A stretch of DNA of 64,000 bases from Candidatus Latescibacterota bacterium (GCA_963667175.2 CAXXXF010000004.1:328184-392183), one strand, 5' to 3'; shown: positions 12,816 through 52,940, numbered from the stretch's first letter. Translations and numbers: made by a program. The notes: a model not told the origin generated them from the letters alone.

Positions 12816-13390
12816 CATGGATAAACAGGATGGACAGGATGAAAACCGAAAAGCAAGACAAGCTCACGAAAAAACGAACATCAGAAACTACGAAACACGC
12901 GAAACACACGAAAAAAACACGAAGAAAACCGATCAGGATTTGCAGGATTAGCCTTGATTCGTAGTTCTTCGGGAACGATAATTCAAATAAACGCAGGCGA
13001 ATAAAGGCGATTTGACGTCCGATTTCCACGAACCTTCAGGTCACTGGACGTGAACGGAATAAACGTCGTTCCGGACGACCTTTTTGGGTCCGTTTCGCAA
13101 CGATACCCTTTGTGTCTTTTGTGCTTTTTGTGGCTAATTTAACGGTTGTCTTTTTTCGAATTGAGGTTAGAACCCAGGAGCAGGATGAAAACCGAAAAGC
13201 AAGACAAGCTCACGAAAAAACGAACATCAGAAACTACGAAACACGCGAAAAAAACACGAAGAAAACCGATCAGGATTTACAGGATTTGCAGGATTAGAAA
13301 CCAGGAGCAGGATAAAAACCAATAAGCGCGACAAAGGCGCCAGAAAACGAACATCAGAAACTACGAAACACGCGAAACACACGAAAGATC
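12816..13390 (+). repeat. Array of ~130-bp A-rich units built from 9-nt-periodic modules
   Basis: Modules caggatggacaggatg, acgaaacacgcgaaacacacgaaa, caggatttacaggatttgcaggatta and ccaggagcagg recur at 12816-12951, 13171-13297 and 13298-13386, and again at 15071-15204. Confidence 0.85.
12952..13166. mobile_element. 215-bp MITE, IS1380-like ends, copy 1
   Basis: Ends CCTTGATTCG ... CGAATTGAGG (imperfect TIR), TTAG duplicated at 12948-12951 and 13167-13170. An inverted second copy lies at 29742-29954. Confidence 0.8.
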
Positions 13391-13420: not shown

Positions 13421-15070
13421 TTGTCATGCCCCTTTGGGGCACCCATAATGATGAAAATGGTTGCGTCAACAGACTTGTGTGGTAGGTTGTTGGCCACCAT
13501 AACCCTTGGCTGGTCGAAGGTCGTTTTGTAGATGGTGCTATGAGCCTGAAAAACAGTTGGACCTGGGTATCTGGAGGTATCCATTATTGTCGCCCCCTGT
13601 AAAGGGAGAGCCCGCCAAGTAGACTCTTATCCCAGCAGATACCCGACCAGCCGGATCAGACACAGGAGGCCTGCGATGCATGTCATCTACCCTTGTTGCG
13701 CTGGTTTGGATGTCCACAAAAAGACGGTCGTTGCCTGCCGGATGAAGGCCGAAGGGTCAAAGCCGAGCCGGCGAGAGGTAAAGACCTTCTCCACAATGAC
13801 CCGGCAGTTGCTGGCGTTGAGCGATTGGCTTTCTCAGTGGGGCTGCACCCACGTGGCGATGGAAAGCACCGGCGAGTATTGGAAGCCCATCTTCAACGTG
13901 CTGGAAGCCAACTTTGAAGTCTTGCTGGTCAATGCGCAGCACGTCAAACAGGTGCCAGGACGCAAGACCGATGTCCGGGATGCTGAGTGGCTGGCCGGGC
14001 TGCTGCAACACGGCTTGCTCAAAGCGAGCTTTATCCCCCCTGCCCTCCAGCGGGATTTGCGTGATCTGACGCGGTATCGCACCACATTGGTGCAGGAGCG
14101 CACCCGGGTGATCAATCGGGTGCAGAAGGCTTTGGAGGGCGCCAACATCAAGCTGTCCAGTGTGGCCAGCGATACGCTGGGCGTGTCGGGTCGGGCCATA
14201 CTAAAAGGGCTCATCCAAGGCCAGGAAGATCCAGCAGCGTTAGCGGAGTTGGCCAAGGGCCGCTTGCGCAACAAGAAGGCCGACCTAGAGCAGGCGCTGA
14301 CCGGCTTTTTCCGACCCCACCATCGCTTTTTGTTGAGCCACTTGCTGGTGCATCTGGACTTTCTGGAAACACAACTTTCTCAGCTGTCCGACCAGATCGC
14401 TCAACACATTGAGGCGATGGGTGTGCCCCCAAAAGACCCGCAGCCTCCTTCGGGCGGTTCGCCCAAGCCTGCGCAGTCACCAACCGCCGCCTCGTCCAAG
14501 CCTGCGCAAGCTTCTCGGCTCCTTCCCAATCAGGCCATGGCCTTGTGGGATACGATTCCTGGCGTCAACCAGACCGTGGCCGAGGTTATGGTGGCCGAAA
14601 TGGGCGTGGATATGGGCCGCTTCCCCACCCACCGGCATCTGGCCTCCTGGGTCGGCTTAGCGCCTGGAAACCATGAAAGCGCAGGGAAACGTCAATCGGG
14701 GCGCACCACCAAAGGCAATCCTGCGTTGCGTCTTGCCCTCGTCCAGGCGGCCTGGGCGGCCTCGCGCACCAAAGACACTTATCTGTCCGCTCTCTATCGT
14801 CGGTTGGCCGCACGACGGGGCAAGAAACGCGCCTTGGTGGCAGTGGCTCATTCCATTCTCACAGCCGCCTATCATATGGCCTGTCACACACAACCCTATC
14901 AAGATCCGGGCAGCAACTATTTCGATCAGCGCAAGAAACACGACGTTGTCTCTCGGCTCTCCCATCGCCTGGAAAAGTTGGGGTACAACGTTGCGCTTAC
15001 GCTACAAGCTGCTTAAATAAAAGAAAAACAACAGGATTCTTCGAAATCTGAAAGGTTATTTTCTAAGTAG
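13421..15070 (+). mobile_element. IS110-family element (boundaries inferred; AG core)
   Basis: AG at 13419-13420 and 15069-15070. Deletion gives caaaacAGaacttatatggata, which resembles the repeat-unit head reconstructed at the intron-1 site. ~255-nt 5' non-coding region. Confidence 0.7.
13676..15016 (+). CDS. IS110 family transposase (DEDD recombinase)
   Basis: CAGLDVHK, MESTGEYW, KTDVRDAEW (DEDD); TIPGV, GLAPGNHESAGK, GNPALR, KRALVAVAH; RBS caggagg. Confidence 0.95.
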   Translation: MHVIYPCCAGLDVHKKTVVACRMKAEGSKPSRREVKTFSTMTRQLLALSDWLSQWGCTHVAMESTGEYWKPIFNVLEANFEVLLVNAQHVKQVPGRKTDVRDAEWLAGLLQHGLLKASFIPPALQRDLRDLTRYRTTLVQERTRVINRVQKALEGANIKLSSVASDTLGVSGRAILKGLIQGQEDPAALAELAKGRLRNKKADLEQALTGFFRPHHRFLLSHLLVHLDFLETQLSQLSDQIAQHIEAMGVPPKDPQPPSGGSPKPAQSPTAASSKPAQASRLLPNQAMALWDTIPGVNQTVAEVMVAEMGVDMGRFPTHRHLASWVGLAPGNHESAGKRQSGRTTKGNPALRLALVQAAWAASRTKDTYLSALYRRLAARRGKKRALVAVAHSILTAAYHMACHTQPYQDPGSNYFDQRKKHDVVSRLSHRLEKLGYNVALTLQAA

Positions 15071-15204
15071 AACTTATATGGATAGACGGGATGGACAGGA
15101 TGAAAACCAAGAGGCACGAAAAATGAACATCGAAAACTACGAAATACGCGAAAAAACACGAGGAAAACCGATCAGGATTTACAGGATTAGAAACCAGGAG
15201 CAGG
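15071..15204 (+). repeat. Further copy of the ~130-bp A-rich repeat unit
   Basis: ggatggacaggatgaaaacc...aaactacgaaatacgcgaaa...gatcaggatttacaggattagaaaccaggagcagg. Confidence 0.8.
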
Positions 15205-15381
15205 GCAAATGCTCACTCTTGCAGGCAACAGCGATGAGTCCATCCACCCTGAAACCCCAACGTTTGCCGGCCAGACCGATTTCGGATTCTTAATGGATTT
15301 CGTTACAATCTCCACTGATGTTATTGAAAATCAACCGATTATATAACAAACCCACCGGTTTTCATGACTATTTCGGGCTAA

Positions 15382-24779: not shown

Positions 24780-27700
24780 CTATCGCGCGATGACGAAGAC
24801 CGCGTCTTTCTCCGCCGATTGGCCGCTGTTCCTGTCGCTGATCGTTACCTTCAGCGTATATCGACCCGGGACCTGATCGGCGAGGTCCAATTCCACGTAT
24901 TCCACTTCCTGCGGGTTCTCGCCCTGCTGTTCGTACGTGACGGCCAGTTCTTCTCTCGTGCCGGTCTTCCACCGGAACAGGCGCGAGACGTTGCTCAACG
25001 TGACCTGCGCGTCCGAGGACGTGATCGAATAGGATACGTAATAGTCCGTCCGGCCGAACGCGTCCTTCGCCAGGTTGTAGATTTCGTAGTAGACGAAGAC
25101 GCCCTGACCCCTTTTGTACGTCCGGGACGGCATGGGAACGACGTTCAGGTTGCCCTTGCTAAAACGGCTGTCCGCTTTTTCCGCGGCTACATGCCAGGCC
25201 AGTTCCAGGTCGCTGATCTGCAGCCGGTCTTCACCGTACGGCTCCACGACAACGTGCTGACGATAGGCGCCCACGCGCCCCCTGAGCCGGTCCTGCGCCC
25301 TCACCTCCAGCCGGTAGGCGCCCGGCGGCAGGTTCAGCTTCAGCACGCCGGGGACCTGGATGCCCTCCCCCGCCTGGTTGCCGGCGGCTTCATACGTGAA
25401 CCCGTCCGATTGCCGGTAGACCGTGTCCAGCGCGGATGATATGAGCGCCGCGTGGTGCGTGAGTACCTGCCGTGTGACGTCCTCTTCCGGAACGTAGTGG
25501 GCGGGAAGGATAGGGACGCCGTAGTAAATTTCCAGGAGGCTGCGCTCGTCTTCCCCCCTGAAGTCCGCCAGCGAGTAGTGGAAATCCAGCGGCGCCGTTT
25601 CCTCTTCGGGCGCATAGTAATTGGGCGCTACCCGGGCGGCTCTCTTGTAGACCTCTCCTGGTGAGTGCGTTCTCAACTTCGCGGTCTGCCTGAGCTCTAT
25701 GTCCCCCCGGTTGGGCGGCATGGGGGCGTATTCATACGTTCCCGCGCCGAATTCATCCGTAAACGTGATTTCAATGCCGCCGCCCACGTCCGTGTAGATC
25801 CACGTTTCCCATGGGATGGTGCTCATGTCTTCGCCGGAGGTAACCGGATGATAGTTGCCGAAGCCCAGCCGCTTGTCCATGGGCAGGGTTCCCAGCCTCA
25901 CCGTATCCATGACGTCCTCCGACGGTACAGCTTCGTTCATCCCGCCGCCAACAAAAGAGGCCTCGCCACCGCCTCCGGCCCCCCCGCCACCGCCAGCTGC
26001 TCCCGTCTGGCTGAGTCCCGGCGTCTCCGCTTCTCGAAACTCGTACCAGGATCCTTCCAGCCGACGCTTGCCGCGTATGGGAAAGACCGGCCCCATAAAC
26101 GTCGCCTCCATTGCGTCCGCGCCGTAGATGCCCGCGGCCAGACGTTCCTTGACCCGCTGGACCGCGAGGCTCTGCCGGTAGTTGGGTTGATCCGACCTGG
26201 ACCGGTGGTCCGGTTCCCCGAAACGGATATAGACCTCGCCCCTGACGTCCCACGGCTGCTTGTTCTCCGAGAATTCCGTGAGCGCGTTCCAGACGCGCCG
26301 GTAGTGTTCCAGCTGGCGTTCATTTACCGGCGTGGACAGGTCCGGGTCCCGGTCGTTCCAGAATCGTTTCAGGAACGCGGCGCGGTCGAGCTCGGGCGTA
26401 TTCTTGAATTCGGCGATTTCCTCGGACGACGAAACGAGCCGGATATCTTCGTACAATAACCTTTCTTCGGCGGGGAGTTTCGATACATAGTCCTGAAAGA
26501 ACTCCATCGCCATGTCCTGCTTACCCTGCTTCATGGACGCCTGGGCGACGATGGGCATGAGTTCAATCGCATCGGGGTTCTGCTCCACGAAACCGAGCAG
26601 TTTTGCCATGATTTTTTCGTAGTCTTCGATCATCAGATACGCAATGCCCAGCCGGCTGCGCAGGCTGGTATCGTCAGGGCGCAGCGCCATGTAACGGGTA
26701 TACCAGACGATGGCCTGCTCGTAGTCCTTCCAGAAATCGGCGTGCCAGTCGCCCATCAGGAGGTAGGCGTCCGCGTAGTTCGGGTCGAGTTCCAGCACCC
26801 GGTCCACCGCGCGGCCCACGTCGTATTCATTCATCTGGTAGCGCATTCTGGCGATCTGATACCGGGCGTCCACGTACCCGTGGTCCCGGGCGAGCGCTTC
26901 CTGGAAATAGTGGATGGCCAGGTTGCGTTCCTTCGGAAGCTCCCCGTACACCAGGCCCACTCCGTAATAGGCCCTGGCGCCGCCCTGTAGCGAGATGGCT
27001 TTCTTGAAGGCCCACATCGCACGCTCGTAGTCTTCCGCCTCGTGGTACGCATGTCCCAATTCAATGTGGAGGGGCGCGTCCTTCGGCCGCTGGACGGCCA
27101 CAAGCCGGAACAGGGCCGCTGCCTCCTTGAGCCGGTCCTCGCGTGTGTGCGCCAGCACGACGGCGAAGAGAGAGTCCACCGTATCGGAACGCATGTCCAC
27201 CGCTTCGAGCCGCCGGTCGCCTGTCGTTTCCGTCAGGTGGAGATACCGGTCCCGGTGCCAGAAACAGGCCAGGACAGGCAGGCCGGGCGCGGCCTGGGGG
27301 CTGTAGAGATATCTGACCTGCGGATCCGATTCGGGAATCGCAGGACAGCTGAAGAGAACGTCGAGGACGTCCGCGTCTCTCTTGCGTTCCGCCTCGCTGG
27401 AAGCCTGCGTTTCGGCTTTCTGTTTTACCCACCGACGGAGAATGCCGTGGTCTGCAGGAAGCGCGTCGTGGATTTCCGCATAGCCGCGCGCCAGATCGTT
27501 CAAGACAATCATGTGTTCCAGGCAGACACGCTCGTTTGCGGCAGTCTTCGGTCGAAGTTGCTGTTCGCGCAGCGTTGCCACGTACGCAAGGCAACTTGCC
27601 CTCGAGACGCCGAGTTTCTTGTGGCGCTTGTGGAGAGCCTCGAACATCCGCTCCACGGCCTTTCGCGCGTCCTTCTCCCTGTGCCGGTCCGCCCGATGCG

Positions 27701-28610
27701 CGGCGGAGTTCATCCGGCTGTATCGAATCAATCCTCTCTGCAGCGCGGCAAGCGCCCTCTGCAGCGAGACCTGTTCGCCGGAAGACAGCGTGGTGTTCAG
27801 ATCGGTCCCCTGCGCGTTTGGGACATCCCGAACGTTGGCGTTGTCCGAGGCAGTTTCGCTGCCCACTTCGCCGGTTGCCGCGCGCACGAACTTCACATCT
27901 TCAGACGTCGTATCGCTCCCGACGAAATAGACTCTCGCGCCGTCTGCAGACCACCGCGGGGCGCCGGTCGTCCTGCGTTTCAAGAGTTGCGTTGCCTTTC
28001 CCGTTCGGTCCACCGTCCATAGCCCGGGCCGACCTCCGTCCGCGACGTCGCCCCACTCGCCGCGAATTGCGAGACGATTCCCTTCCGGAGAAACGGCAAT
28101 GCCCATTGGATTCAGTTCAGGCGGGAGCGGCCAGCGGCTCTCGTCCGAACCGTCCACGCTGACAAGCCAGATACGGTTCCTGACGATCGGCAGGGTGCGG
28201 CCGCCCGCGAGATACGAACCGAAGGCCGGATATCTGAGGCTTCGTTCGAGATAGACCAGGGCGCTGGCATCCGGCAGGAATTCCAGGGCGCCCGCCGCGC
28301 CCGGATAGGTCCTTAGCCGCCGGGGACTCTCGCCATCTCCTCGCGACAGCCATATTTCCGTCAGCAACGCCCTCCGTTCGCCATGTTCCACGGCACAGGC
28401 GCGCATCCGCCCGTCGGGAGACGTCACCGGGCGAGTCTCCGCTGACGAAGAGGGCCGAGGGCATAGCAGCGTTGTGAAAAGCAACACGAACCCGACCGCG
28501 AGTGCGGTATCTGGAGCCGTCCCGTCGGTCTTCCGGTTGACGGTGGTCTTAGAATCGGTCATTTGTCCTGTCCCGGCGGCAGCATACGAAGAAAACATCG
28601 TGAAGCACAA
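24780..28610 (-). CDS. Large secreted TolB-like propeller + TPR + GWxTD-like domain protein
   Basis: SPDG/SPEG/WSADG blades, TPRs, DPDLSTPVNERQLEHYRRVW, PWDVRGEVYIRFGEPD, Gly-rich loop, WETWIY. Confidence 0.87.
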   Translation of the reverse strand: MCFTMFSSYAAAGTGQMTDSKTTVNRKTDGTAPDTALAVGFVLLFTTLLCPRPSSSAETRPVTSPDGRMRACAVEHGERRALLTEIWLSRGDGESPRRLRTYPGAAGALEFLPDASALVYLERSLRYPAFGSYLAGGRTLPIVRNRIWLVSVDGSDESRWPLPPELNPMGIAVSPEGNRLAIRGEWGDVADGGRPGLWTVDRTGKATQLLKRRTTGAPRWSADGARVYFVGSDTTSEDVKFVRAATGEVGSETASDNANVRDVPNAQGTDLNTTLSSGEQVSLQRALAALQRGLIRYSRMNSAAHRADRHREKDARKAVERMFEALHKRHKKLGVSRASCLAYVATLREQQLRPKTAANERVCLEHMIVLNDLARGYAEIHDALPADHGILRRWVKQKAETQASSEAERKRDADVLDVLFSCPAIPESDPQVRYLYSPQAAPGLPVLACFWHRDRYLHLTETTGDRRLEAVDMRSDTVDSLFAVVLAHTREDRLKEAAALFRLVAVQRPKDAPLHIELGHAYHEAEDYERAMWAFKKAISLQGGARAYYGVGLVYGELPKERNLAIHYFQEALARDHGYVDARYQIARMRYQMNEYDVGRAVDRVLELDPNYADAYLLMGDWHADFWKDYEQAIVWYTRYMALRPDDTSLRSRLGIAYLMIEDYEKIMAKLLGFVEQNPDAIELMPIVAQASMKQGKQDMAMEFFQDYVSKLPAEERLLYEDIRLVSSSEEIAEFKNTPELDRAAFLKRFWNDRDPDLSTPVNERQLEHYRRVWNALTEFSENKQPWDVRGEVYIRFGEPDHRSRSDQPNYRQSLAVQRVKERLAAGIYGADAMEATFMGPVFPIRGKRRLEGSWYEFREAETPGLSQTGAAGGGGGAGGGGEASFVGGGMNEAVPSEDVMDTVRLGTLPMDKRLGFGNYHPVTSGEDMSTIPWETWIYTDVGGGIEITFTDEFGAGTYEYAPMPPNRGDIELRQTAKLRTHSPGEVYKRAARVAPNYYAPEEETAPLDFHYSLADFRGEDERSLLEIYYGVPILPAHYVPEEDVTRQVLTHHAALISSALDTVYRQSDGFTYEAAGNQAGEGIQVPGVLKLNLPPGAYRLEVRAQDRLRGRVGAYRQHVVVEPYGEDRLQISDLELAWHVAAEKADSRFSKGNLNVVPMPSRTYKRGQGVFVYYEIYNLAKDAFGRTDYYVSYSITSSDAQVTLSNVSRLFRWKTGTREELAVTYEQQGENPQEVEYVELDLADQVPGRYTLKVTISDRNSGQSAEKDAVFVIAR

Positions 28611-41047: not shown

Positions 41048-42079
41048 TTATCGATGTTCCATCAACACACGAAACCCAGTGAGAGAGTTTGGTATCCAAC
41101 CGAGGGATCGTGTAGCCGACCTGATCCCCGCTGGCTGGTCGAAACTAGAACCTCCTCTTTCGACGTGACTGTATTGTGGAAGTCTTCTTCCAGTGGGACC
41201 GTCGGGCCCTTTGGGGTCGACCTGCGGCGCTTCCGAATACGGTCCATAGTAATCCTGCACCAACTCCCGTACATTCCCGTGCATATCGTACAGGCCCCAG
41301 GAGTTCGGAAATCCGCCCCCGGTTTCCTGCGCCGCTGGGCTTCCGTAGACTGTACGCCCGTCGTCAAGGACGATTGCCGTACGGGAGTTCTCATTATATC
41401 GCGCGTAATCGGCAATACGAGACGAGTCTTCCCCAAATGACCACGGAGTCGAGGTGCCAGCCCGGCATGCATATTCCCACTCCGCCTCCGTAGGTAGTCG
41501 GTAGACATCGGTACTCTCCAATTCGTTCAATCTTTGGACGAACGATTGGACTTCGTGCCAGCGCATTCTGTTAGCTGGAAAGTTCGCTCTCCCTGAAACT
41601 TCGGAAGTCGATCCGACTAGCCACGGACGTGTGTTCATCACGCTTTCCCACTGAATCTGCGTGACTTCGTACTTGCCCAGGTAGAACCCCCTTGTTAAAG
41701 TAACTTCATGGCGTGGACCCTCATCTTCATTCCGGCCGGGCTCGTAAATAGGCGATCCCATCAGGAACCTGCCCGGCTGGATCCAGACCATCTCCAGCTT
41801 TGCGCCGCGGGGTAGCGAAACCGTGATCTCCGCCTCCGGCATTCCCTCCCCGAACTGCTTCGTGAACAGGATGAAATCCGGAAAATCCACGCTTCCATTG
41901 CCGTCAAGGTCGAAAAGGTGTTGATTCGACCCAAAAGCCTGCGCGAACAGGATGAAGTCCCCGAAATCCACGATTCCGTTGGCATCGAAGTCAGCATCGC
42001 GGGACTGGGCTATCAGAGGCTGGTTCAGACTAAACAAAGCCAGAACGGCGAAGTTCAGTGTGAACGTCATTCGTCTCAT
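41048..42079 (-). CDS. EF-hand/dockerin-like + FGE-sulfatase domain protein
   Basis: Same motifs; RGGSSF...GFRVLMEHR. Confidence 0.92.
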   Translation of the reverse strand: MRRMTFTLNFAVLALFSLNQPLIAQSRDADFDANGIVDFGDFILFAQAFGSNQHLFDLDGNGSVDFPDFILFTKQFGEGMPEAEITVSLPRGAKLEMVWIQPGRFLMGSPIYEPGRNEDEGPRHEVTLTRGFYLGKYEVTQIQWESVMNTRPWLVGSTSEVSGRANFPANRMRWHEVQSFVQRLNELESTDVYRLPTEAEWEYACRAGTSTPWSFGEDSSRIADYARYNENSRTAIVLDDGRTVYGSPAAQETGGGFPNSWGLYDMHGNVRELVQDYYGPYSEAPQVDPKGPDGPTGRRLPQYSHVERGGSSFDQPAGIRSATRSLGWIPNSLTGFRVLMEHR

Positions 42080-42560: not shown

Positions 42561-43595
42561 TTATCGATGCTCCATCACCACACGAAACCCGGTGAAAGCG
42601 TCCGGCACCCACCCGAACGAACGGGCAGCCGCCCGAATCCACGCGGGGCGATCAAAACTCGATCCTCCTCTCACAACGCGGCTGCCATCCAGAGCGCGTC
42701 CTCCAGCGGGTCCGTCGGGCCCTTTGGGATCGACCTGCGGCTCATCCGAATACGGACCGTAGTAATCCTGCACGAGTTCACGTACATTTCCGTGCATATC
42801 ATATAGGCCCCACGGGTTCGGAAAAACGCCCCCTGTTTCCTGCACCTCCGGAGGTCCAAAGACTCTTCGCCCGTCGTCCAGAATGGTGGCTCTGCGTGAG
42901 TTCCCGAAATATCGCGCGTAATCGGCGATGCGGGTCGTGTCGTTTCCGAACGACCAGGGTGTCTTGGTGCCTGCCCTGCAGGCGTATTCCCACTCCGCCT
43001 CCGTGGGCAACCGGAAAATATCCGATCCTTCGGCCTCGTTCAATTCACGTATGAATGTCTCGATTTCGCGCCAGCGCATTCTATTTGCCGGAAAGTTCCC
43101 TCTCCCGGGAACCTGAGAAACCACTCCCATAAGCCACGGACGCGTATTCATCACGCTCTCCCACTGCGACTGCGTGACTTCGTGCTTGCCCATGTAGAAT
43201 CCCGTTGTAATCGTGACTCCATGCCGGGGACCCTCGTGATCGTCTCGGTCGGGCTCAGAATCCGGCGACCCCATCAGGAAGCGTCCTGGCTGGATCCAGA
43301 CCATATCCAGCTTTGCGCCTCTCGGAAGCGTCACCGTAATCTTCTCTTCCGGCGCACCCTCTCCGAACCGCTGTGCAAACAGGATGAAATCCGGAAAACC
43401 CACGCTTCCATTGCCGTCAAGGTCGAAAAGGTGTTGATTCGATCCGAAAGCCTGCGCGAACAGGATGAAGTCACCGAAATCCACGATTCCGTTGGCGTCG
43501 AAATCAGCGTCGCGGGTGGATTGGGCGAGCGGGGCTTGCCAAACAATCAGCAATGCGCTCAGGGCAAGTATTACAAGAACGGTATTTCGTCTCAT
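42561..43595 (-). CDS. EF-hand/dockerin-like + FGE-sulfatase domain protein
   Basis: Same motifs; RGGSSF...GFRVVMEHR. Confidence 0.92.
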   Translation of the reverse strand: MRRNTVLVILALSALLIVWQAPLAQSTRDADFDANGIVDFGDFILFAQAFGSNQHLFDLDGNGSVGFPDFILFAQRFGEGAPEEKITVTLPRGAKLDMVWIQPGRFLMGSPDSEPDRDDHEGPRHGVTITTGFYMGKHEVTQSQWESVMNTRPWLMGVVSQVPGRGNFPANRMRWREIETFIRELNEAEGSDIFRLPTEAEWEYACRAGTKTPWSFGNDTTRIADYARYFGNSRRATILDDGRRVFGPPEVQETGGVFPNPWGLYDMHGNVRELVQDYYGPYSDEPQVDPKGPDGPAGGRALDGSRVVRGGSSFDRPAWIRAAARSFGWVPDAFTGFRVVMEHR

Positions 43596-43997
43596 CGTTC
43601 TTTGGGCTCCCTTCGGCCGCTGTGTTCAGTTATGTGATGGTCGCGCCGTTCAGATTTCGAGCCATCGACAGACCGAAATTGTCGGCTGCATGGCGACTCA
43701 TCGTTTCCATAAAGTAAGTTGATTTTAATATTAATCAAGACTTGCAATCGTCGTCCGGGTTCAATACATCGACCTGCCATAGGAACGGGGCATCGGAGAG
43801 GCAATCCATTCAGACGGGGATCCTGTTGGGAACGGTGGAGATCGTCTAAGGAGCTACCTGCTGCGCATTGAATTGTCGAATGCTGTCATTCATGATCGAA
43901 CTTGTGAACATCTCTATACCGAATCTGAGTTTAGCTCGAGTCAATCCAAGCCGGTTGACTGTGTATTCAGGATACCCGAAGTGTTCGGATGTCAATC

Positions 43998-46900
43998 CTA
44001 TTCCGCGATGACGAAAACGGCGTCCTTCTCCACCGCCTCGCCGCTGGTCCTGTCGTTAATCGATACTTTCAATGAATATCGGCCTGGAACCTGATCGTCC
44101 AGGGCCAGTTCCACGTATTCCACTTCCTGAGCATCGTCGCCCAGTTGTTCGTACGAAACGGCCAGTTCTTCTCTCTTGCCGCTATCCCACCGGAACAGAC
44201 GGGAGATATTGCTCACCTGATCAGGCGCCTCTCTGGACGTGATCTTATAGGAGACACTGTAGTTCGTCTGCCCGAATTCGTCTTTTTTCAGGTTGTAAAC
44301 CTCGTAGTAAACAAAAACGCTTTGGCCTTTCCGGAATGTTCGAGAAGGCATTGGTATTACTTGCAGATCTCCCTTGGCGAATCTGCCTGCCGTCTTTTCG
44401 GCAGTAATCCTCCAGGCCAATTCCAGGTCGCTGATCTGCAATGCATCCGCGCCATAGGGCTCTACCACGACCTGTTGCTGATAGATGCCCATTCTTCCTT
44501 TCGCGCGATCCTGCGACTTCACCTCCAGACGATAAGCGCCGGGCGGCAGGTTCAATTTCAGCACGTCCGGCACGAGCTGACCTTCACCGGCCAGATTACC
44601 CTCAGCCTTGTAGTCGATCTCATTTGTCTTCCGGTAGACCGTGTCCAGCGCGGATGAAATCAGCGCTGCGTGGTGCGTCAGAACCAGCCGAGTCACATTT
44701 TGTTCTGACATGTAGTGGCCTGTTAGGACCGGAACGCCATAGTAGATCTCCAGGAGGCTACGGTCGTCGCTTCCTTTAAAGTCAGCTAACGAATAGTGGA
44801 AATCGAGAGGCGGTTTCCTGTCTTCGGGGACATAGAAGTCGGGAGTACTCGCCGCCGCTCGATGGTAGACGGATTCCGGCGAGTGGGTGCTCAACGACGC
44901 GGTCTGACGTATCGAGATCCCTCCCTGGTTCGGCGGCACCGGTGCATAGTCATATATTCCGGAACCGATTTCGTCTGTAAAGGTGATTTCAATACCGCCT
45001 CCCACGCCGGTATATATCCACGTCTCCCAGGGCACCGTACTCGGATCGTCGCCTGAGGTAACCGGGTGATAGTCCCCGAATCCCAGCCGTTCGTCCATTG
45101 GAAGGATGCCTATACGGACCTCATCATCAGGCGCTGGCGACGGCGTCGTTACGCCTTCATCAGAGGACGGGCCTTGACCCGAGAAACCGGAACCATCGGC
45201 ATCGCCGACCGCCGCATCAATGGACCCGACGTCGCCAGCCCCCGGATCGGCGGAGGATGCCGACGCGTTCTCTATGTTGATGTCTTTCAGATCATACCAC
45301 GCGCCATCCAGTTGTTTGTGGCTGCGTACAGGGTAGACGGGTCCGACAAACGTGTGCGCCCTGACGTCGCCCTTGTAAATATCGAATGCGAGGCGTTCTT
45401 TGACCCGCTGTACTTCCAGGCTCTGCTTGAAATTGGGTTCGTCTGATCTTGATCGATGATCGGGTTCCCCGAACCGGATGTAGACGTCTCCTCGAGTGTC
45501 CCAGGGCTTCTTGCCTTTGGAGAACTCCGTGAGCGCGTACCAGACCCTTCTGTAGTGTTCCAGCAGACGTTCGTTAACGGACGTGGAGAGATCCGGATCC
45601 TTGGAATTCCAGAAGCGCCGCAAATGGTCTGCGCGGTCGGCGGCTACGGCTTCTCGATGGGCACGAAGCTCTTCGCTGGACGCAATTTGCGATATGTTTT
45701 CGTAAAGTCTTCGTTTATCGTCAGGAAGATTGGATATATAATCCTCGAAGAACCCCATTGCCATTTCCAGACTGTCCTGTTTGATGGCAGAAATAGCGAC
45801 GATTGGCATCAGTTCAATCGAATTCGGATGCCTCTGGACGAAGTCATACAGGTGGTCCATAATCTTCGAATAATCCTTAACTTTCAGGTATGCAATCCCA
45901 AGGCTGCGTTGCGCATCCGAATCTTCCGGGTGTAGCGCAAGGTATTTCGTATACCATACGACGGCCTTTTCAAATTCCCACGAAAAGTTCAAATAATAGT
46001 CCGCAATCAACAAATAGGCGCCCGCATGCTCGGGGTCCATTTCCAGGACTCTCTTTGCTTCCAACTCGGCATCTCGTTCCTTCATGTCATAACGCACTCT
46101 GGCCATCTGATATCGCGCGTCCACAAAGTTCCGATCTTTAATCAATGCCTCCGTGAAATGGTGGATCGCAAAATGCCGCTGCATCGGCCATGTCTTGTAA
46201 AGCATACCCAGGCCAACGTGCGCCTCCGCCTTACCTCCCAGTCTCAGCGCTCGATGAAACGCTTCCTTCGATTCCTCGAATCGTCTCAATTTCAGAAGAA
46301 TGTGACCCAGGTGGATATATGCGTCGGGACCCTTCGGCCGTTGACGCGCCACGTTCCGAAAGATCAGACGCGCCCGGTCCAGTTCATTCGCGTCCATGGC
46401 GCGGCGACCGGTGGATGCCAGGCTGTCGACCCGTGCTGCGGGTATGTGCGAAATCTCCGTGTGACCGCCTTCGAGGTCCGCGACACCGTCGATTTGCTCG
46501 CCGCGGTGCCAGAAACAGGCCAGGGCCGGCGCGCCTGGCAATCCCTGGTGCTTATACAGATAATCGCTGAGAAATGTGTAATCCCGGTTTGATGGGCACG
46601 AGAACAGCACGTCAAGGATCGCTTTCCTGTCATCCAGTTCCTTTCCGGCCGGCGTGTCTGCAACAATCCTCCGCGTTGCCCACTGATGCAATTCAGCAAG
46701 GTCTGCGGGTTCGTTGTTGTTCCGCGCACGCTTGAATTCGTCCATCAGCCGGAGCATCCCCGTCAAGCGCTCCTGGCAGTTGCGTCTGTCGGCCTTCCTG
46801 GCGTCTGCTTTGATCCAAATCTCACAAGCTTTGATATATCTTGCGCAACTATTCCTCGACAATCCGTACGTCGCGGCCTGATCGTAGAGTCTCTTGAATT

Positions 46901-49744
46901 CGCGCCTGGCATGCTCGAACAATTCTTTCGCATTGTCTTCGTTTCCTCTGTGGAGGGCATTTCTGCCGCGTATGTACAGGTTCAGGCCGGAACTGATTAA
47001 ACGTAGGGGGATATCTGACGAATCGGACTGACGCAAAGCGTCTGTGGACCTCGCCCTGGACAGGGATTCTCGATCTTGTCTTCCGTTCGCAGGAATTCCT
47101 TCCTTCGGAATGTAGGGAACAGTTTCGCCCGTCTCTACGTGAACACGGATCGCCTCCCCCTCGTCCTTGACACCGCATGAAACAGTTTTTCCATCATCTG
47201 ACCAATCTACAGGCCCACTTACGTTACCGGCAAACAAAAGCCTGATGTCTCCCCGTCTGTCGACTGTCCAGAGGCCGTGGCTTGTGCGCTCGAAAGCATT
47301 GCGTCGATAACCGATAATCGCCAATGACCGTCCATCAGGAGAAAGCGCGAATTGGAGAGGTTGAAGATCCGTAGGAAGCGGCCACGCTTCCTCTTTGGTA
47401 CCGTCCGGATACAACGACCATATTATGTTTTTCGTGATCGGTATCGAGTGGCCTCCATAGAAATACGACCCCCACGCTTCGTGTCGCAAGCTTCGTTCCA
47501 GATATATCAAGGCATCGCCAGCCGGATCAAAATAGAGGTCGCCTGGTCTTCCGGGATAAGTCTTGATCCTCCTGGGTTGTGTGTCCAAAATCGAGACAAT
47601 CCAGATTTCAGTGACAGAAATCGCACCCTTGCCCCTCTGGATTGCAAAAGCTCGATCCCCGGCCACTGACGTTACAGGTAGAGTCGAGAGGTGGCGCGGT
47701 GGTGTAGGAGAGGCCTATCTGTTTCCGCCCCTTTCGTCTGGCGGTGCCTCAATAGCCGCTCCGCGCTCCGTTTCCACGTCCCGCTCATCGAACCGGACGT
47801 GCGGATTTACCGCATCCGGCTCTCGGACAAGGAGTCATGCGTTCGCCCACGGAAGGTTGTGCGTCTGCACCTCCAGCCGGGTCAGGCCCAACGTATTGTA
47901 GAGGACCTCGTCAGGGAGACGGGACGTCCCCTTTCCCGGTATTCGGTACTTGTTGCACAACCACCAGCGGAGCCGTTGCCGGGTGTGGCTGTCCACACTC
48001 CGGTAGGCTTTGCTGACCGGACCAAGACGGAAGTAGTTGCCCCACCCTGTTAGCTTTCGGTTCAGGTGGGCAATCCGTTCTTGATGGTCTTTCAGCAGCC
48101 ACCGCCGCGCCGTTGCCTCGCTGATGGCCCGGCAGATGTGCCGGATGGCCTTCTTTGACGGGCGCGTGCCGATATAGGCCTTTCCCGTCTTTGGTGAGTA
48201 ACAGCGTTCGATGGTGTAGCCCAGAAAGTCAAATCGTCCTTCAGGAAGCGTGCATATGCCCGTCTTCTGCTCGTTCACCGTCAACTTGAGCGCCTTCATA
48301 ATGGATCGCATCGCGCGCATCGCTTCTTTTGCGGTGCCGCGACAGCAGATCACAAAATCGTCCGCGTAGTTGACAATATGAGCCTTCAGGCGTTGCTGAT
48401 GTCCCCGAACCTGCCATCCCAGAATGAACCGCCGCATATACAGGTTCGCCAGCAGGGGCGAGATCGGGGCGCCTTGCGGTGTCCCCCTTCCCTGATCCTT
48501 GTTCGGCGTCGTTCGACGTTTGCGGCCCCGCTTGTCGGTCTCCTCAATCGGCGCGGTCAGCCACAGCTTGACCAGGCCCAGCATACGCCCGTCACTGATG
48601 CGACGCGCCACACATTTCATCAGCTCGGCATGCGGGATCGTGTCAAAGTAACCGCTCAAGTCCGCGTCGATCACCTGCGTATGGCCACGGCTCACCAGAC
48701 TGTGAACCGCCCTGATGGCGTCGTGCGCACTCCGTTTCGGACGGTACGCATACTGCGCCGCTGGCAGGTCCGCCTCAAAGATCGGCTCCAATACCAGCAT
48801 CGCCGCGGTTTGCACCACCCGATCTTTCACCGTCGGGATGCCCAGCGGCCTTTGCTTCCCGTTCGGCTTGGGGATATACACCCGACGGATCGGAGACACC
48901 CGATACGATTTGCTCCTTACGGCTTCCGACAGTTCGCCTAACCACCGCTTTTGCCCATATGACTCGATATCCGCAAACGTCTCGCCGTCCACGCCCGCCG
49001 CGCCGCCGTTGGCCTTGCAGCAGCGGTACGCATAAAGCAGGATGTCCTCGCGATACACCTTGTCATACAGCGCGTAGAATCGGTAGCCGGGCGATTCCTT
49101 CGCTTTGGCATGCAACGTCCTCTGCAACTTCCGAACCTTTTCCGGAGGTCTTAGGCTCATACCAATCTCCAGGCTCTCGCTCCTTTGACGTTGCCCTTGA
49201 ACCAAGGCCCCTTTCCTCCGCCGGCATTACCCGGCTTCTCAGGTACTACGGGCCTCTCCGCCACCCCACGCGGCCCGGCCTGACCCTCACGGGCTGCCGG
49301 TTGGTGTCTCCACCACCGCCTGGGGCTTCCCGTGTTGCGTCGGAACTCCTTGTATACGTGCCTCCGCCACTACCCCGGCGGGACCGTTGGGTGCTCGCGT
49401 TGCCTGCTTCCCCAACGACGGCGGCCTTCCCCGAAATTCAGGCGGGTCGGCTCCCGCATTACCCTTTTCGAGGCCTGCGCAGCGTTCACTCACGTTTCGG
49501 CCCGCATACTCGCCAAGTCGCCTTGCGACCCTCTACACCGGAGGCTTCGGAGATGTCGTTTCCTACGTCCCCGCTCCGATTGCTACCGACTGTGGCAACA
49601 CTTGTCGGGTGGGACTCTCACCCACTGAAGTTCCGCGCCTTTTCACGGCGCACTGAGATAATCAGGGTCAGACGCTTCGACAACACGGGGGGTTGCCAGG
49701 ATGCAGAATGCAATTACGAGTGTAACCCGTATGTTCCACCGCAT
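43998..49744 (-). CDS. Large secreted TPR + GWxTD-like protein, intron-split (exon 1 49654-49744, exon 2 43998-47677; 1256 aa spliced)
   Basis: AGGAGG RBS, then ATG 49744 MRWNIRVTLVIAFCILATPRVVEASDPDYL-A|CT-VTS continues in frame into the ORF-track protein (V/M)AGDRAF; PWDTRGDVYIRFGEPD. Confidence 0.85.
47678..49653 (-). mobile_element. Group II intron, copy 2 (sense insertion in a CDS)
   Basis: GTGCG start at 49653, CTCGACTCTAC end at 47678, very similar to copy 1 throughout. Confidence 0.93.
47835..49205 (-). CDS. ltrA: Group II intron reverse transcriptase/maturase
   Basis: 456 aa, near-identical to 10994-12364; YADD intact. Confidence 0.95.
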   Translation of the reverse strand: MVQGQRQRSESLEIGMSLRPPEKVRKLQRTLHAKAKESPGYRFYALYDKVYREDILLYAYRCCKANGGAAGVDGETFADIESYGQKRWLGELSEAVRSKSYRVSPIRRVYIPKPNGKQRPLGIPTVKDRVVQTAAMLVLEPIFEADLPAAQYAYRPKRSAHDAIRAVHSLVSRGHTQVIDADLSGYFDTIPHAELMKCVARRISDGRMLGLVKLWLTAPIEETDKRGRKRRTTPNKDQGRGTPQGAPISPLLANLYMRRFILGWQVRGHQQRLKAHIVNYADDFVICCRGTAKEAMRAMRSIMKALKLTVNEQKTGICTLPEGRFDFLGYTIERCYSPKTGKAYIGTRPSKKAIRHICRAISEATARRWLLKDHQERIAHLNRKLTGWGNYFRLGPVSKAYRSVDSHTRQRLRWWLCNKYRIPGKGTSRLPDEVLYNTLGLTRLEVQTHNLPWANA

Positions 49745-49779
49745 GACGTTGCCCTCCTGCCATTCAACAATGCAGTTCG

Positions 49780-50591
49780 GACTTTAATTATCCTGAACCG
49801 GAAGTCGAGTTTGCATTGGTACCCCAACCCACAATAGAGCTACGCGTCCTTGTCCTCGGGAAACTGATCCAGGCATCGCTTTGAGGCCAATACCAACCCC
49901 CTCGGATTCTTGCTCTCATAGTGAATCAGTCCCAAGTCGTAATGCGCATCTCGATTTTCAGGATCGACCTCGGTGCCTTTTATCAGGAATGCCAGTGCTT
50001 TATCTCTATCCCGCGTTCCGTGTTGTTCCCAGCGAAAAAGGCGGTACATTGGTGGCCCTACTCCACCTGCGACGATTCCTACAGGCTCCATCTCGAAATA
50101 CTTCAGGAAAGCCTGCACGGAAAAAATCCAACCAGGTACGCTGCTTGGGCGCGTTGTTCCGGAAAGTTCTCGTAAATCTTCTCATAATGCCGTTCGGCAC
50201 TTAGCCAGAGCCCCTGCTTGCCGAGCAACTCACCGAGCGCCATCTGATAATCACCACTTCTCGGCTCCAGCCGAATCGCCTCATCCAGCGCATTTCGTGC
50301 ACTCTGGCGATCCATGGGCGTGTCAAGCGACATATACAGCTTCGCGATCTCGTAGTGGGCCGGCGCGAAGTCCCGGTCCGCCTTCAATACGTCATGGAAG
50401 GCCTCTATACTTGCCTCAGCGCTGACACTTCCGACCTGCTCTAGAGCTGACTCGTAAATCGTATCGGCGATTTGCTTCGGCGTGCCTTCGAGTGGTGAAA
50501 TGACAGAGAGTCCGAAGCAAAAAAGCACAACTCCATATGAAGTAAACCTCCTACACCATCTTTGGATGTGACGAAATTTTCGAAATGTCAT
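49780..50591 (-). pseudogene. Type-A GWxTD pseudogene (frameshift, nonsense codon, large deletion)
   Basis: 50103-50591 and 49840-50118 match the N-terminus of 50625-52940. One T missing in the GFF T-run (~50121-50126); TAG at 49840 replaces the L of DKDAL; homology stops after LYCGLGYQ. Confidence 0.85.
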
Positions 50592-50624
50592 AACAGCACC
50601 TCGTGAGCTTCCATTTGCTCGCGT

Positions 50625-52940
50625 TCACTCAATCACGCGGAACAACGCATCCCGCGACGCTTCCTGACCGGTATGCATATCCGTCAGACGCACCGATAGG
50701 CGGTGCACACCCGCAGGCACGTGGCTCAGGTCAATCTGCAGATACGTGAAGTCATCCTCCCGGTCCCCCTCGTACTGAGAGGTAATTGTCGTTTGGGTGC
50801 CTTGTGTATCCTTTTCCATTTCTTTCATCAGCAGGGCGATTTCGTCTTCGCGATCTCCCATTCCCTCGCTCACGTGCAGCACCTCATATTTGTGGTTCCG
50901 CGTCACAATCACGTCTGGCGTCCTCGTTGGCTTGCCATTGCCTGGCAGCCGCTGCGCTGTAAACAAGTAAGGATCGATCCTTTCCTCGCCTGGACGGCCG
51001 ATCCGATAAGAAATCTCATACTCCGTGCGTCCATACCTGTCACGCCTCAGGTTATATAGTTCCAGATAGATGAACGCTGGCTCCGACCGATGGTAGGTCC
51101 GTAAGGGATTCGCAACAACATTCAGATCATCCCTGTCTTCCGGAAACGGCGACTGTGTTGCGATTTGCGTGGCCAGCAGCAGATCACTCATTGCGAGCGT
51201 AGAATCCGCCATCTCGAACGTGCGCTGCTCTCGAAACGTCCCGATCGACCCACTTTCTGCGTCCCTCACCTCGCAAATCAGATTGTACGTGCCCGGGGCC
51301 AACGTGAATGCTTTCTGAAACACCAGATGGTTTTCCCGCAAGCTGTCCACAACGGGATACCCGCTATCCGTCAACTCGGGCCACCTCAGATCCAGAGCCG
51401 ACCGCTTTCTAAAGACAGCATCCCATCGCTCGTCAAAAAGGAAGATCCCGTTCTCCAGAACCATACTATCCGCTACCGACGCGGACACGTTGTACTTCGG
51501 CAGCGCATACGCCAATTCTACGCGGAGGCTATTTCCATCCTTGAAGCCAACCACCTGATAGGGAATTCTATATTTGTGATGTCGATAGGGGTCCAGAACG
51601 TGGGGTGGTTGACGATTGAAGATATATCGACTCGAAATCCGGCCTGGACGAGTATCGAAACGCCATGAATCCAGACCGTCGCTGTTGAAAAACGAAATTG
51701 AAAAACCATCATAATACCACTCTTCATTCCCACCCTGAACGACTCTACTAATGCCGGTGCTCGCTCCATCGACACCGCCTGGCAACTCCATACGCGTTGC
51801 CGTTTTGTTGAGATACCTCCCGAATTTGATATGGGCCTTGCCACGGTCGGTTTGCCATCCCTGTATCCCCTTCAGCCGCTGCCCGTATCTGAGATTGGCA
51901 TACGCCACCCGTCCATAGTGCTCCATGCGTCGCTCGCTGAATGCTGTCAGGTAAAGGGGATCGCGTTTCCGCCAGAACCGCACCCGCTCACGGCTATCCG
52001 TCCATCCGTTTTGGGTCGCATCGGTCGTCGCAATTGAATCAAGCGCCGATAGTTCCTTCTGGCTTGCAATTACGTCCACCGACTCCATCAGAGCGCGTTC
52101 CTGTGCCGACATTCGCTCCAACGCGCCCAAATAATAGTCGTGGGCAGTTTCCAATTCACCCATCCTCTGGTATCCCAGACCACAGTAAAGCAACGCGTCC
52201 TTATCCTCGGGAAATTGATCCAGGCACAGCTTTGATGCCGTTACCAGTCCATTGGGATTCTGGCTTTCGTAATGGATCAGTCCCAAATCATAGTACGCTT
52301 GTCGATATCCGGGATCGGTCTCGATGCTCCTGATCAGAAATGCAAGTGCTTTCTCACGGTCGTGTGCGCCGTATTTTTCCCAACGAAACAGGTGATATGT
52401 AGGTGGCCCGCCGCCAGTAATAATATCTATGTGCTCCATATCGATATACTTCAAAAACGCCTGCAGGGAAAAAAAACCTACCATATACGCTGCCTCGGCA
52501 AACCTTTCGGGATGGGTCTCACATACCTTTTCGTAATGCCTCTCGGCATTCAACCAGAGCCCCTGCTTGCCGAGCAACTCACCGAGCAACAGTTGATAAT
52601 TCCCGTTGCCCGGTTCCAGTAGAATCGCCTCGTCCAGCGCCTTGCGCGCACTCTGGCGATCCATGGGCGTATCCATAGACATATACAGCTTCGCGATTTC
52701 ATAATGGGCCGGTGCGTGGTCCGGATCCGCATTCAATACCTCACGGAAAGCCCCCAGGCTCTGCTCGACGGTGACATTTCCGACTTGCTCCAGAGCTTTC
52801 TCGAAGAGCCTGTCTGCAGCCTGCTTCTCACCGGCCGCAATCGGCGACGCGAGACAGAATCCGAGCCACAGTACCGCTAACACGAAGGAACTCAATCCCG
52901 CGCGGCAAATTCGCGTTTGACGAATTATCAGGGATGGCAT
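50625..52940 (-). CDS. Secreted TPR + GWxTD domain protein (type A)
   Basis: Signal peptide, TPRs, GWQTDRGKAHIKFG. Confidence 0.9.
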   Translation of the reverse strand: MPSLIIRQTRICRAGLSSFVLAVLWLGFCLASPIAAGEKQAADRLFEKALEQVGNVTVEQSLGAFREVLNADPDHAPAHYEIAKLYMSMDTPMDRQSARKALDEAILLEPGNGNYQLLLGELLGKQGLWLNAERHYEKVCETHPERFAEAAYMVGFFSLQAFLKYIDMEHIDIITGGGPPTYHLFRWEKYGAHDREKALAFLIRSIETDPGYRQAYYDLGLIHYESQNPNGLVTASKLCLDQFPEDKDALLYCGLGYQRMGELETAHDYYLGALERMSAQERALMESVDVIASQKELSALDSIATTDATQNGWTDSRERVRFWRKRDPLYLTAFSERRMEHYGRVAYANLRYGQRLKGIQGWQTDRGKAHIKFGRYLNKTATRMELPGGVDGASTGISRVVQGGNEEWYYDGFSISFFNSDGLDSWRFDTRPGRISSRYIFNRQPPHVLDPYRHHKYRIPYQVVGFKDGNSLRVELAYALPKYNVSASVADSMVLENGIFLFDERWDAVFRKRSALDLRWPELTDSGYPVVDSLRENHLVFQKAFTLAPGTYNLICEVRDAESGSIGTFREQRTFEMADSTLAMSDLLLATQIATQSPFPEDRDDLNVVANPLRTYHRSEPAFIYLELYNLRRDRYGRTEYEISYRIGRPGEERIDPYLFTAQRLPGNGKPTRTPDVIVTRNHKYEVLHVSEGMGDREDEIALLMKEMEKDTQGTQTTITSQYEGDREDDFTYLQIDLSHVPAGVHRLSVRLTDMHTGQEASRDALFRVIE

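Follow-up and report, generated by a model that had tools for sequence, protein, structure and literature searches.

Bacterial group II introns mostly lie outside housekeeping genes, with known exceptions such as that in recA of Geobacillus kaustophilus (cited in the review PMC4424553). Three further published systems come close to the case reported here. In Thermosynechococcus elongatus, there are 28 intron copies, including derivatives without an open reading frame (ORF), and their target sites have diverged (Mohr, Ghanem & Lambowitz, 2010; PMC2882425). In Clostridium tetani, C.te.I1 resides in the gene of a surface-layer protein, where it is domesticated, non-mobile, and alternatively spliced in vivo (McNeil & Zimmerly, 2014; PMC4024640). 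Introns of classes IIE and IIF have ribozymes of 450-700 nucleotides (nt) and lack an endonuclease (En) domain in the encoded protein, long domain VI stems being noted for IIF (Nagy et al., 2013; PMC3753933). The present analysis concerns a stretch of 64,000 nt from Candidatus Latescibacterota bacterium (GCA_963667175.2 CAXXXF010000004.1:328184-392183), referred to as the window, in which a gene for a 1256-residue GWxTD/TPR protein (43998-49744, minus strand, as are all of its parts described below) is interrupted by a group II intron at 47678-49653. It is probable that this is an active, endonuclease-less intron that recently retrotransposed off-target into one GWxTD/TPR paralogue, and that the resulting allele is splicing-dependent, a spliceable but weakened hypomorph rather than a designed switch.

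The identity and limits of the intron are confirmed, and chance is not a credible explanation for them. The element is 1976 nt long, runs from GTGCG to CTAC, and interrupts codon 31 in phase 1. It is recognized as a complete group II intron because it matches Rfam RF02003 (group-II-D1D4-4; 49490-49627, 102.1 bits with the gathering cut-off at 49, E-value 2.5e-22) and RF00029 (domains V and VI; 47678-47824, 41.7 bits against 40) and contains an intact reverse transcriptase/maturase. Its termini fit the GUGYG/AY rule, and identical ends are seen in all 26 intact-looking copies in the genome (5.52 Mb in 18 contigs), the first and last bases being constant across ten full-length and 16 ORF-less copies with unrelated flanks. 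Exon 1 (49654-49744, 91 nt, with the ATG at 49744) encodes MRWNIRVTLVIAFCILATPRVVEA-SDPDYL, and GGAGGG, a Shine-Dalgarno-like sequence, can be read 7 nt upstream of the ATG (49752-49757). Exon 2 (43998-47677, 3680 nt) encodes the remainder of the protein and the stop codon. Together the exons make 3771 nt and read as 1256 codons up to the stop, uninterrupted by any other stop codon. By eye, the N-terminus fits the n-h-c arrangement of a Sec (type I) signal peptide (MRWNIR, VTLVIAFCILA, TPRVVEA), with probable cleavage after VEA.

Homologues and a contig from another sequencing run support the same junction. Joining the exons (DNA GATTATCTCA/CTGTAACGTCA, the slash marking the junction) gives the protein sequence EASDPDYL/TVTSVAGDR. 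The closest uninterrupted orthologue, at 83 % identity, reads unbroken through this point (EASDRDYLTVTSVAGDQ) and has no intron in its DNA (GATTATCTCA/CGGTAACG). Of 34 database homologues, 33 share the signal-like N-terminus and align colinearly across the junction; the exception is truncated at the N-terminus, and none of the 34 is of normal length without a signal-like peptide. Three sequencing runs were found, among which only X1 (share 0.05), labelled as a coral metatranscriptome, is on record as RNA; whether X2 is DNA or RNA is not on record. In a 1167-nt contig from run X2, 47677 is joined straight to 49654, skipping exactly 1976 nt, with 606 nt on the exon 2 side carrying seven differences and the other side reaching about 460 nt beyond the ATG in the upstream direction. 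Read most simply, this contig would be an intron-less DNA allele of a very close strain; were the run RNA, it would be the spliced form, and the boundaries hold either way. The preliminary description of this locus, made from the sequence alone, had placed the intron limits, the 91-nt exon 1, and the in-frame join where the ends of the 26 copies, the homologues, and the X2 contig now put them, to the base. It had also suggested looking for intron-less alleles in relatives, and the 83 % orthologue and, on the simplest reading, the X2 contig are of this kind. Its remark that ORF callers miss exon 1 likewise holds for the public gene call (P0003), a protein of 1079 amino acids whose start corresponds to residue 179 of the spliced protein and which therefore lacks exon 1 and more. 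This is an annotation error, leaving the public product 177 residues short and without its putative signal peptide.

The intron belongs to a family that has multiplied in this genome, where the 26 copies, ten with the ORF and 16 without, are accompanied by two fragments and together amount to about 32 kb, or 0.58 % of the sequence. Six full-length copies, including the one at 47678-49653, form subfamily A (99.9-100 % identity), and four others form subfamily B at 94 %. The ORF-less copies, of 758-1059 nt (for example C1:36591-37348, C12:56298-57059, and C4:159754-160514), fall into three subfamilies, S1 (five copies, all identical), S2 (three copies, all identical), and S3 (eight copies). The identical sets of five and three occupy different loci, unique ectopic sites included, and therefore point to recent mobilization in trans by the protein of the full-length copies. 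Based on identical copies at unrelated sites, the family appears to be currently mobile. Each specificity group is found mostly in its own intergenic repeat, of which ten, 12, and 14 copies are unoccupied for A, for B, S1, and S2, and for S3, respectively; the A and B insertion sites are about 270 nt apart within one repeat unit. Four of the six A copies lie in the home repeat (CCTGAAtTATTCA/tGAAAACCGGTGG), with the copy at 47678-49653 and that at C6:492703 outside it. Among the 26 copies, most of which are in intergenic repeats, only that at 47678-49653 is in sense orientation within a long ORF. The comparison was extended to relatives, whose genomes are labelled Gemmatimonadota, with 40 copies from nine related genomes; both ends could be mapped in 36, L026, L038, L053, and L054 being dropped for want of a 3′ end. 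Four long frames spanning an intron were seen among these 36, but they are arginine-rich, have no Pfam match, and were rejected as spurious. This leaves one sense insertion in a coding sequence among 62 mapped copies overall.

In its dozens of close copies (26 here, 28 there), its diverged targets, its preference for repeated non-essential DNA, and its ORF-less derivatives, presumably mobilized in trans in both cases, the family resembles that of T. elongatus, a proliferation described by its authors as an exception (Mohr, Ghanem & Lambowitz, 2010; PMC2882425). The two differ in host lineage and in that there is no sign of thermophily here, related RNA having been seen in a coral-labelled run. 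The present family is also spread across the whole genus, with members in 13 of 14 further genomes from the genus and 15 of 21 from the family, but in none of the 19 searched from the sister family. The T. elongatus introns presumably belong to a different intron lineage.

The copy in the GWxTD/TPR gene matches C6:490728-492703 at 100 % identity and the four other A copies at about 99.9 %. Because of the identical copy elsewhere, and because the site is empty in the close strain and in the 83 % orthologue, the insertion is recent and strain-specific. It is also exact and sense-oriented, and both exons, the intron, and its maturase are intact. The likely course of events is that a member of this family, whose usual place is in intergenic repeats, recently retrotransposed to an off-target site in codon 31 of one paralogue. 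The unspliced reading frame ends three codons inside the intron (DYLSAP and a stop), and unspliced transcripts would yield a peptide of 33 residues; the full-length protein bearing the putative signal peptide would come only from spliced transcripts, with the help of the intron's own maturase. The preliminary description had made export depend on splicing. Because of the early stop, the dependence would by logic cover the whole protein and not export alone. The allele is probably tolerated since the genome has several paralogues, three of them in the window.

How well such an allele is spliced would depend on the pairing between exon-binding site 1 (EBS1) and intron-binding site 1 (IBS1). EBS1 (UGAAUUU, 49434-49440) is part of a 9-nt hairpin loop within domain I (intron positions 212-220), identified as such because it covaries with the last five to seven exon bases across five subfamilies and at least eight specificities in relatives. 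Thus UGAAUUU of subfamily A pairs with exons ending in ATTCA, CAUGGAU of subfamilies B, S1, and S2 with ATCCATG, and UGUCAGC of S3 with GCTGACA, while relatives include UUUCGAA with TTCGAAA, UUGCGAA with TTCGCAA, and UAUCAGC with GCTGATA. At this locus the IBS1 region (49654-49660, positions -1 to -7) reads TATCTCA, of which TCA alone pairs contiguously with EBS1. These three contiguous pairs compare with five to seven at the other 25 sites, making this the weakest of the 26, and bear out the imperfect pairing noted in the preliminary description. The calculated duplex free energy of -0.5 kcal/mol here compares with -2.0 in the other five A copies and with -8 to -10.1 in subfamily B and the S subfamilies. 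In vitro, IIE and IIF introns lost some or all of their activity when the three distal EBS1-IBS1 pairs were broken, fidelity was governed by the proximal three, and splicing did not require EBS2-IBS2 (PMC3753933). By this in vitro yardstick, poor splicing is to be expected at the present site because the proximal pairs are kept and the distal ones lost, and with only three proximal pairs left splicing would probably be inefficient or error-prone.

A harsher outcome, that EBS1-IBS1 is too weak for any productive splicing and the gene is a plain knockout, a nascent pseudogene with exons that have not yet decayed, is possible though doubtful. It would accord with the weakest pairing of the 26 sites and with the IIF intron Pe.th.I2, in which distal IBS1 mutations abolished activity in vitro (PMC3753933). 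The same family does disrupt other genes in antisense, beyond rescue by splicing, and intact exons are uninformative when the insertion is so recent. Against a knockout, however, the three splice-site-proximal pairs are retained, exon 2 opens with C, a base that also occurs there at home sites, the intron and maturase are intact, and reverse splicing, which relies on these same pairings, was able to use the site. At the other extreme, the preliminary description had raised the idea of conditional splicing. In an adaptive version of it, weak pairing would tie export of this paralogue to maturase level or conditions as a regulatory switch. At this locus, that version is favoured only by the weak pairing and by an architecture that places the putative signal peptide on an exon of its own, along with the precedent of C.te.I1, an intron exploited in the gene of a surface protein (PMC4024640). 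Such a purposeful arrangement is now weakened and seems very improbable, as the copy is identical to mobile copies, its EBS1 has no site-specific adaptation, neither a near-identical strain nor orthologues carry it, and it is the sole sense insertion in a coding sequence in the whole mapped set. Both introns lie inside the gene of an exported or surface protein with a splicing-dependent product, but that of C. tetani is domesticated, and the present one is an unmodified and recent copy of a mobile element (McNeil & Zimmerly, 2014; PMC4024640). The insertion is read as an accident because the copy is identical elsewhere, strain-specific, and the only one in sense within an ORF, others disrupting genes in antisense.

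A leaderless cytoplasmic form, made independently of splicing, could start at GTG 47666, as the preliminary description suggested and from which 1222 codons are open, or at residue 179, where the 1079-residue database call begins. There is no Shine-Dalgarno-like purine run ahead of GTG 47666, and this codon (47664-47666), the start of the longest conventional ORF, is an internal valine in the spliced protein that aligns with internal V, R, or S positions of homologues, so it is an unlikely start. Both starts are internal to the N-terminal region conserved in the 33 colinear homologues, and with no leaderless homologue of normal length among them a leaderless product is most improbable. Hardly credible at all is an assembly artefact in which a repeated intron has been misplaced into the gene. 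A 26-copy repeat is the kind at which assemblers break, and assembled contigs do end at intron borders, but the flanks here are the same gene and join base-perfectly, where a chimeric join would link unrelated flanks. The reading of the allele as a weakened but spliceable hypomorph is thus preferred, and several points weigh against it. Maturase-assisted splicing in vivo may tolerate weak pairing, the expectation of inefficiency coming from in vitro work on other introns, and forward splicing may exceed what the pairing would suggest if the site was usable for reverse splicing. The apparent class of the intron is assigned by ribozyme features only, while its protein is nearest to class C among solved structures. 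The depth of run X1 is nil across 47128-47583 and beyond 49750, and the run is silent on splicing here.

The intron-encoded protein (47835-49160) is 441 amino acids long from ATG 49160, which has GGAG 6 nt upstream, and has a YADD motif; the ORF (47835-49205) is intact and would give 456 amino acids if started at TTG 49205. It matches RVT_1 (6.4e-36), GIIM (2.8e-13), and TIGR04416 (group II intron reverse transcriptase/maturase; 358 bits against a cut-off of 300). Searches with Pfam and NCBIfam profiles found no endonuclease domain, only the reverse transcriptase and maturase (X) domains. The protein lineage is common, with at least 8000 proteins at an E-value of 1e-30 or below, typically of 441 amino acids and from several phyla. 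Its nearest solved structures are class C reverse transcriptases (GsI-IIC RT; 6ar1, 2.7e-54). To our knowledge, there is no solved structure of a class E or F protein to compare against.

Once the ORF is subtracted, the ribozyme is 650 nt long. Domain V (47790-47822, 33 nt), placed from the Rfam alignment and 23 distinct intron tails, has an AGC triad and a 5-nt terminal loop (UAAAU), the 5-nt loop being present in all 23 of the distinct tails aligned. Domain VI (47678-47786) is long and branched, at about 110 nt, with a basal stem of 13 base pairs (bp) that shows compensatory variation among copies, and a bulged adenosine at 47684, the seventh base from the 3′ splice site, is the presumed branch point. 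In the lack of an endonuclease domain, the small ribozyme, the 5-nt domain V loop, and the use of EBS1-IBS1 as the main exon recognition, the intron resembles classes IIE and IIF, and the long structured domain VI is shared with IIF (PMC3753933). By these ribozyme features the intron would carry the hallmarks of the IIE/IIF lineages. Membership of class IIC was considered and rejected because the target sites are not terminator hairpins, only one of the 26 (C6:492703) following an obvious hairpin, and EBS1-IBS1 reaches 7 bp, as it does in three subfamilies. The intron differs from the IIE and IIF introns of that study in that no covarying EBS2 was found in domain I (PMC3753933).

The region 5′ of EBS1 yielded no variable complementary loop as a candidate EBS2, and the sole complement, GGNCAGG, lies 3′ of EBS1. 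In the present copy this is a conserved GGUCAGG (49279-49285, intron positions 369-375), complementary to the distal CCUGAUU of the site with 7 of 7 pairs, two G-U included, a score attained by random 7-mers in 0.19 % of trials. The distal 5′-exon motif CCTGA (49662-49666, positions -13 to -9) is common to the usual targets of the subfamily, and CCTGA and TCA are the only bases that the site holds in common with the home repeat. Its central C is unique to this allele, being missing in all eight other homologues aligned as DNA, and the resulting Pro-27 (CCT; CGT, arginine, in the orthologue) is unique among the 34 proteins. Many targets with different EBS1 specificities have a looser distal motif, T-A/C-A-R-C-C-T-G, at -17 to -9. 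GGNCAGG was nevertheless rejected as a covarying EBS2, as the 40 copies from relatives keep the motif whatever the target, the middle base does not follow the exon, and the shared sequence shows no covariation. It folds in a three-way junction, 3′ of and outside the predicted closing helix of domain I. A fixed contact, or a site read by the encoded protein, is possible for GGNCAGG, which is not a proven EBS2. One improbable extension is that DNA targets are chosen largely via a fixed, EBS2-like contact of CCUG (about -13 to -10) with CAGG, that the Arg27-to-Pro change (CGT to CCT) created the target despite the 3-bp IBS1, and that the weak grip on the 5′ exon throttles the secreted paralogue by maturase supply.

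The case is real but a fairly ordinary accident of an intron family multiplying in a genome. To the known kinds it adds an occupied and empty allele pair and a target with minimal pairing. Nature here provides a clean example of a bacterial group II intron seen shortly after its arrival in a chromosomal coding gene, and the empty sister-strain allele, together with the antisense knockouts elsewhere, makes a natural test of what off-target insertion with minimal pairing costs the host gene. The wider context, an En-less intron family multiplying genus-wide, with many ORF-less derivatives and retargeted EBS1 loops, may be more useful. Like the introns of housekeeping genes such as recA of G. kaustophilus, this one is sense-oriented in a chromosomal protein gene with splicing required, but those are mostly of the ML or CL lineage according to the review (PMC4424553), and the gene interrupted here, itself a member of a set of paralogues, is non-housekeeping. 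Narrow literature searches, which are not proof of absence, found no paper on a bacterial group II intron interrupting a signal-peptide gene, and among the papers listed for Gemmatimonadota, sponge, or coral none mentions group II introns.

The host gene is a member of a large paralogous family with matches in all 41 genomes searched, its own included, and its relatives are named 'GWxTD domain-containing protein' in the database. Exon 2 encodes TPR repeats at about residues 417-660 and the GWxTD domain at about 651-747 (P0001 numbering). The latter is recognized by TIGR04514 (59.6 bits against a cut-off of 28), with Pfam PF20094 scoring 24.8, under its cut-off of 26.9. Further paralogues in the genome have 66, 51, 43, and 38 % identity to the interrupted protein. 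Three GWxTD/TPR paralogues lie in the window, at 1-1101, 24786-28403, and 43998-49744, the first two of these being the paralogues at 66 and 51 %, and among them are TPR genes and two FGE-sulfatase-domain genes (41048-42079 and 42561-43595). Similar tandem clusters are found in relatives. A scan of 43500-50700 for promoters and terminators was at background, with five promoter-like hits against 4.0 expected and four terminator-like hits against 7.0.

Elsewhere in the genome, an S2 ORF-less copy lies antisense in a long gene (G000:C18:38034-38795; L066, 3035-3796) whose halves match SIR2_2 and DUF4020. The gene looks like a defence-type gene and is simply broken, because the insertion is antisense and splicing is unable to rescue it. 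An S1 ORF-less copy is likewise antisense in an ORF of about 860 codons without a Pfam match (G000:C10:42755-43512; L065, 2756-3513). Two like-oriented copies separated by 547 nt occupy G000:C6:489421-492703, one of them ORF-less and of S3, the other full-length and of subfamily A; the latter comes after a strong hairpin (GGGGCAGGTTT-caa-AACCTGCCC), which is the sole hairpin-type target among the 26 sites.

Intron-like contigs in run X1, 90-95 % alike, have a depth of about 1000 over ribozyme parts against about 180 over the ORF, and one continues into a home-type exon of a relative. Introns of relatives are therefore present in the library, and splicing is not thereby shown. Within the window, a full-length subfamily B copy (10837-12815, minus strand, EBS1 CAUGGAU) directly follows ATCCTGTTTATCCATG in an intergenic repeat. 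The home-site repeat unit is about 350 nt long, is intergenic, and contains CCTGAATTATTCATGAAAACC and CATCCTGTCCATCCTGTCCATCCATG. It is seen at G000:C3:249294-249591 (L068, about 2290-2600) and at 10-14 similar places, and inside the window at about 1294-1447, 13177-13286, and 15069-15381.

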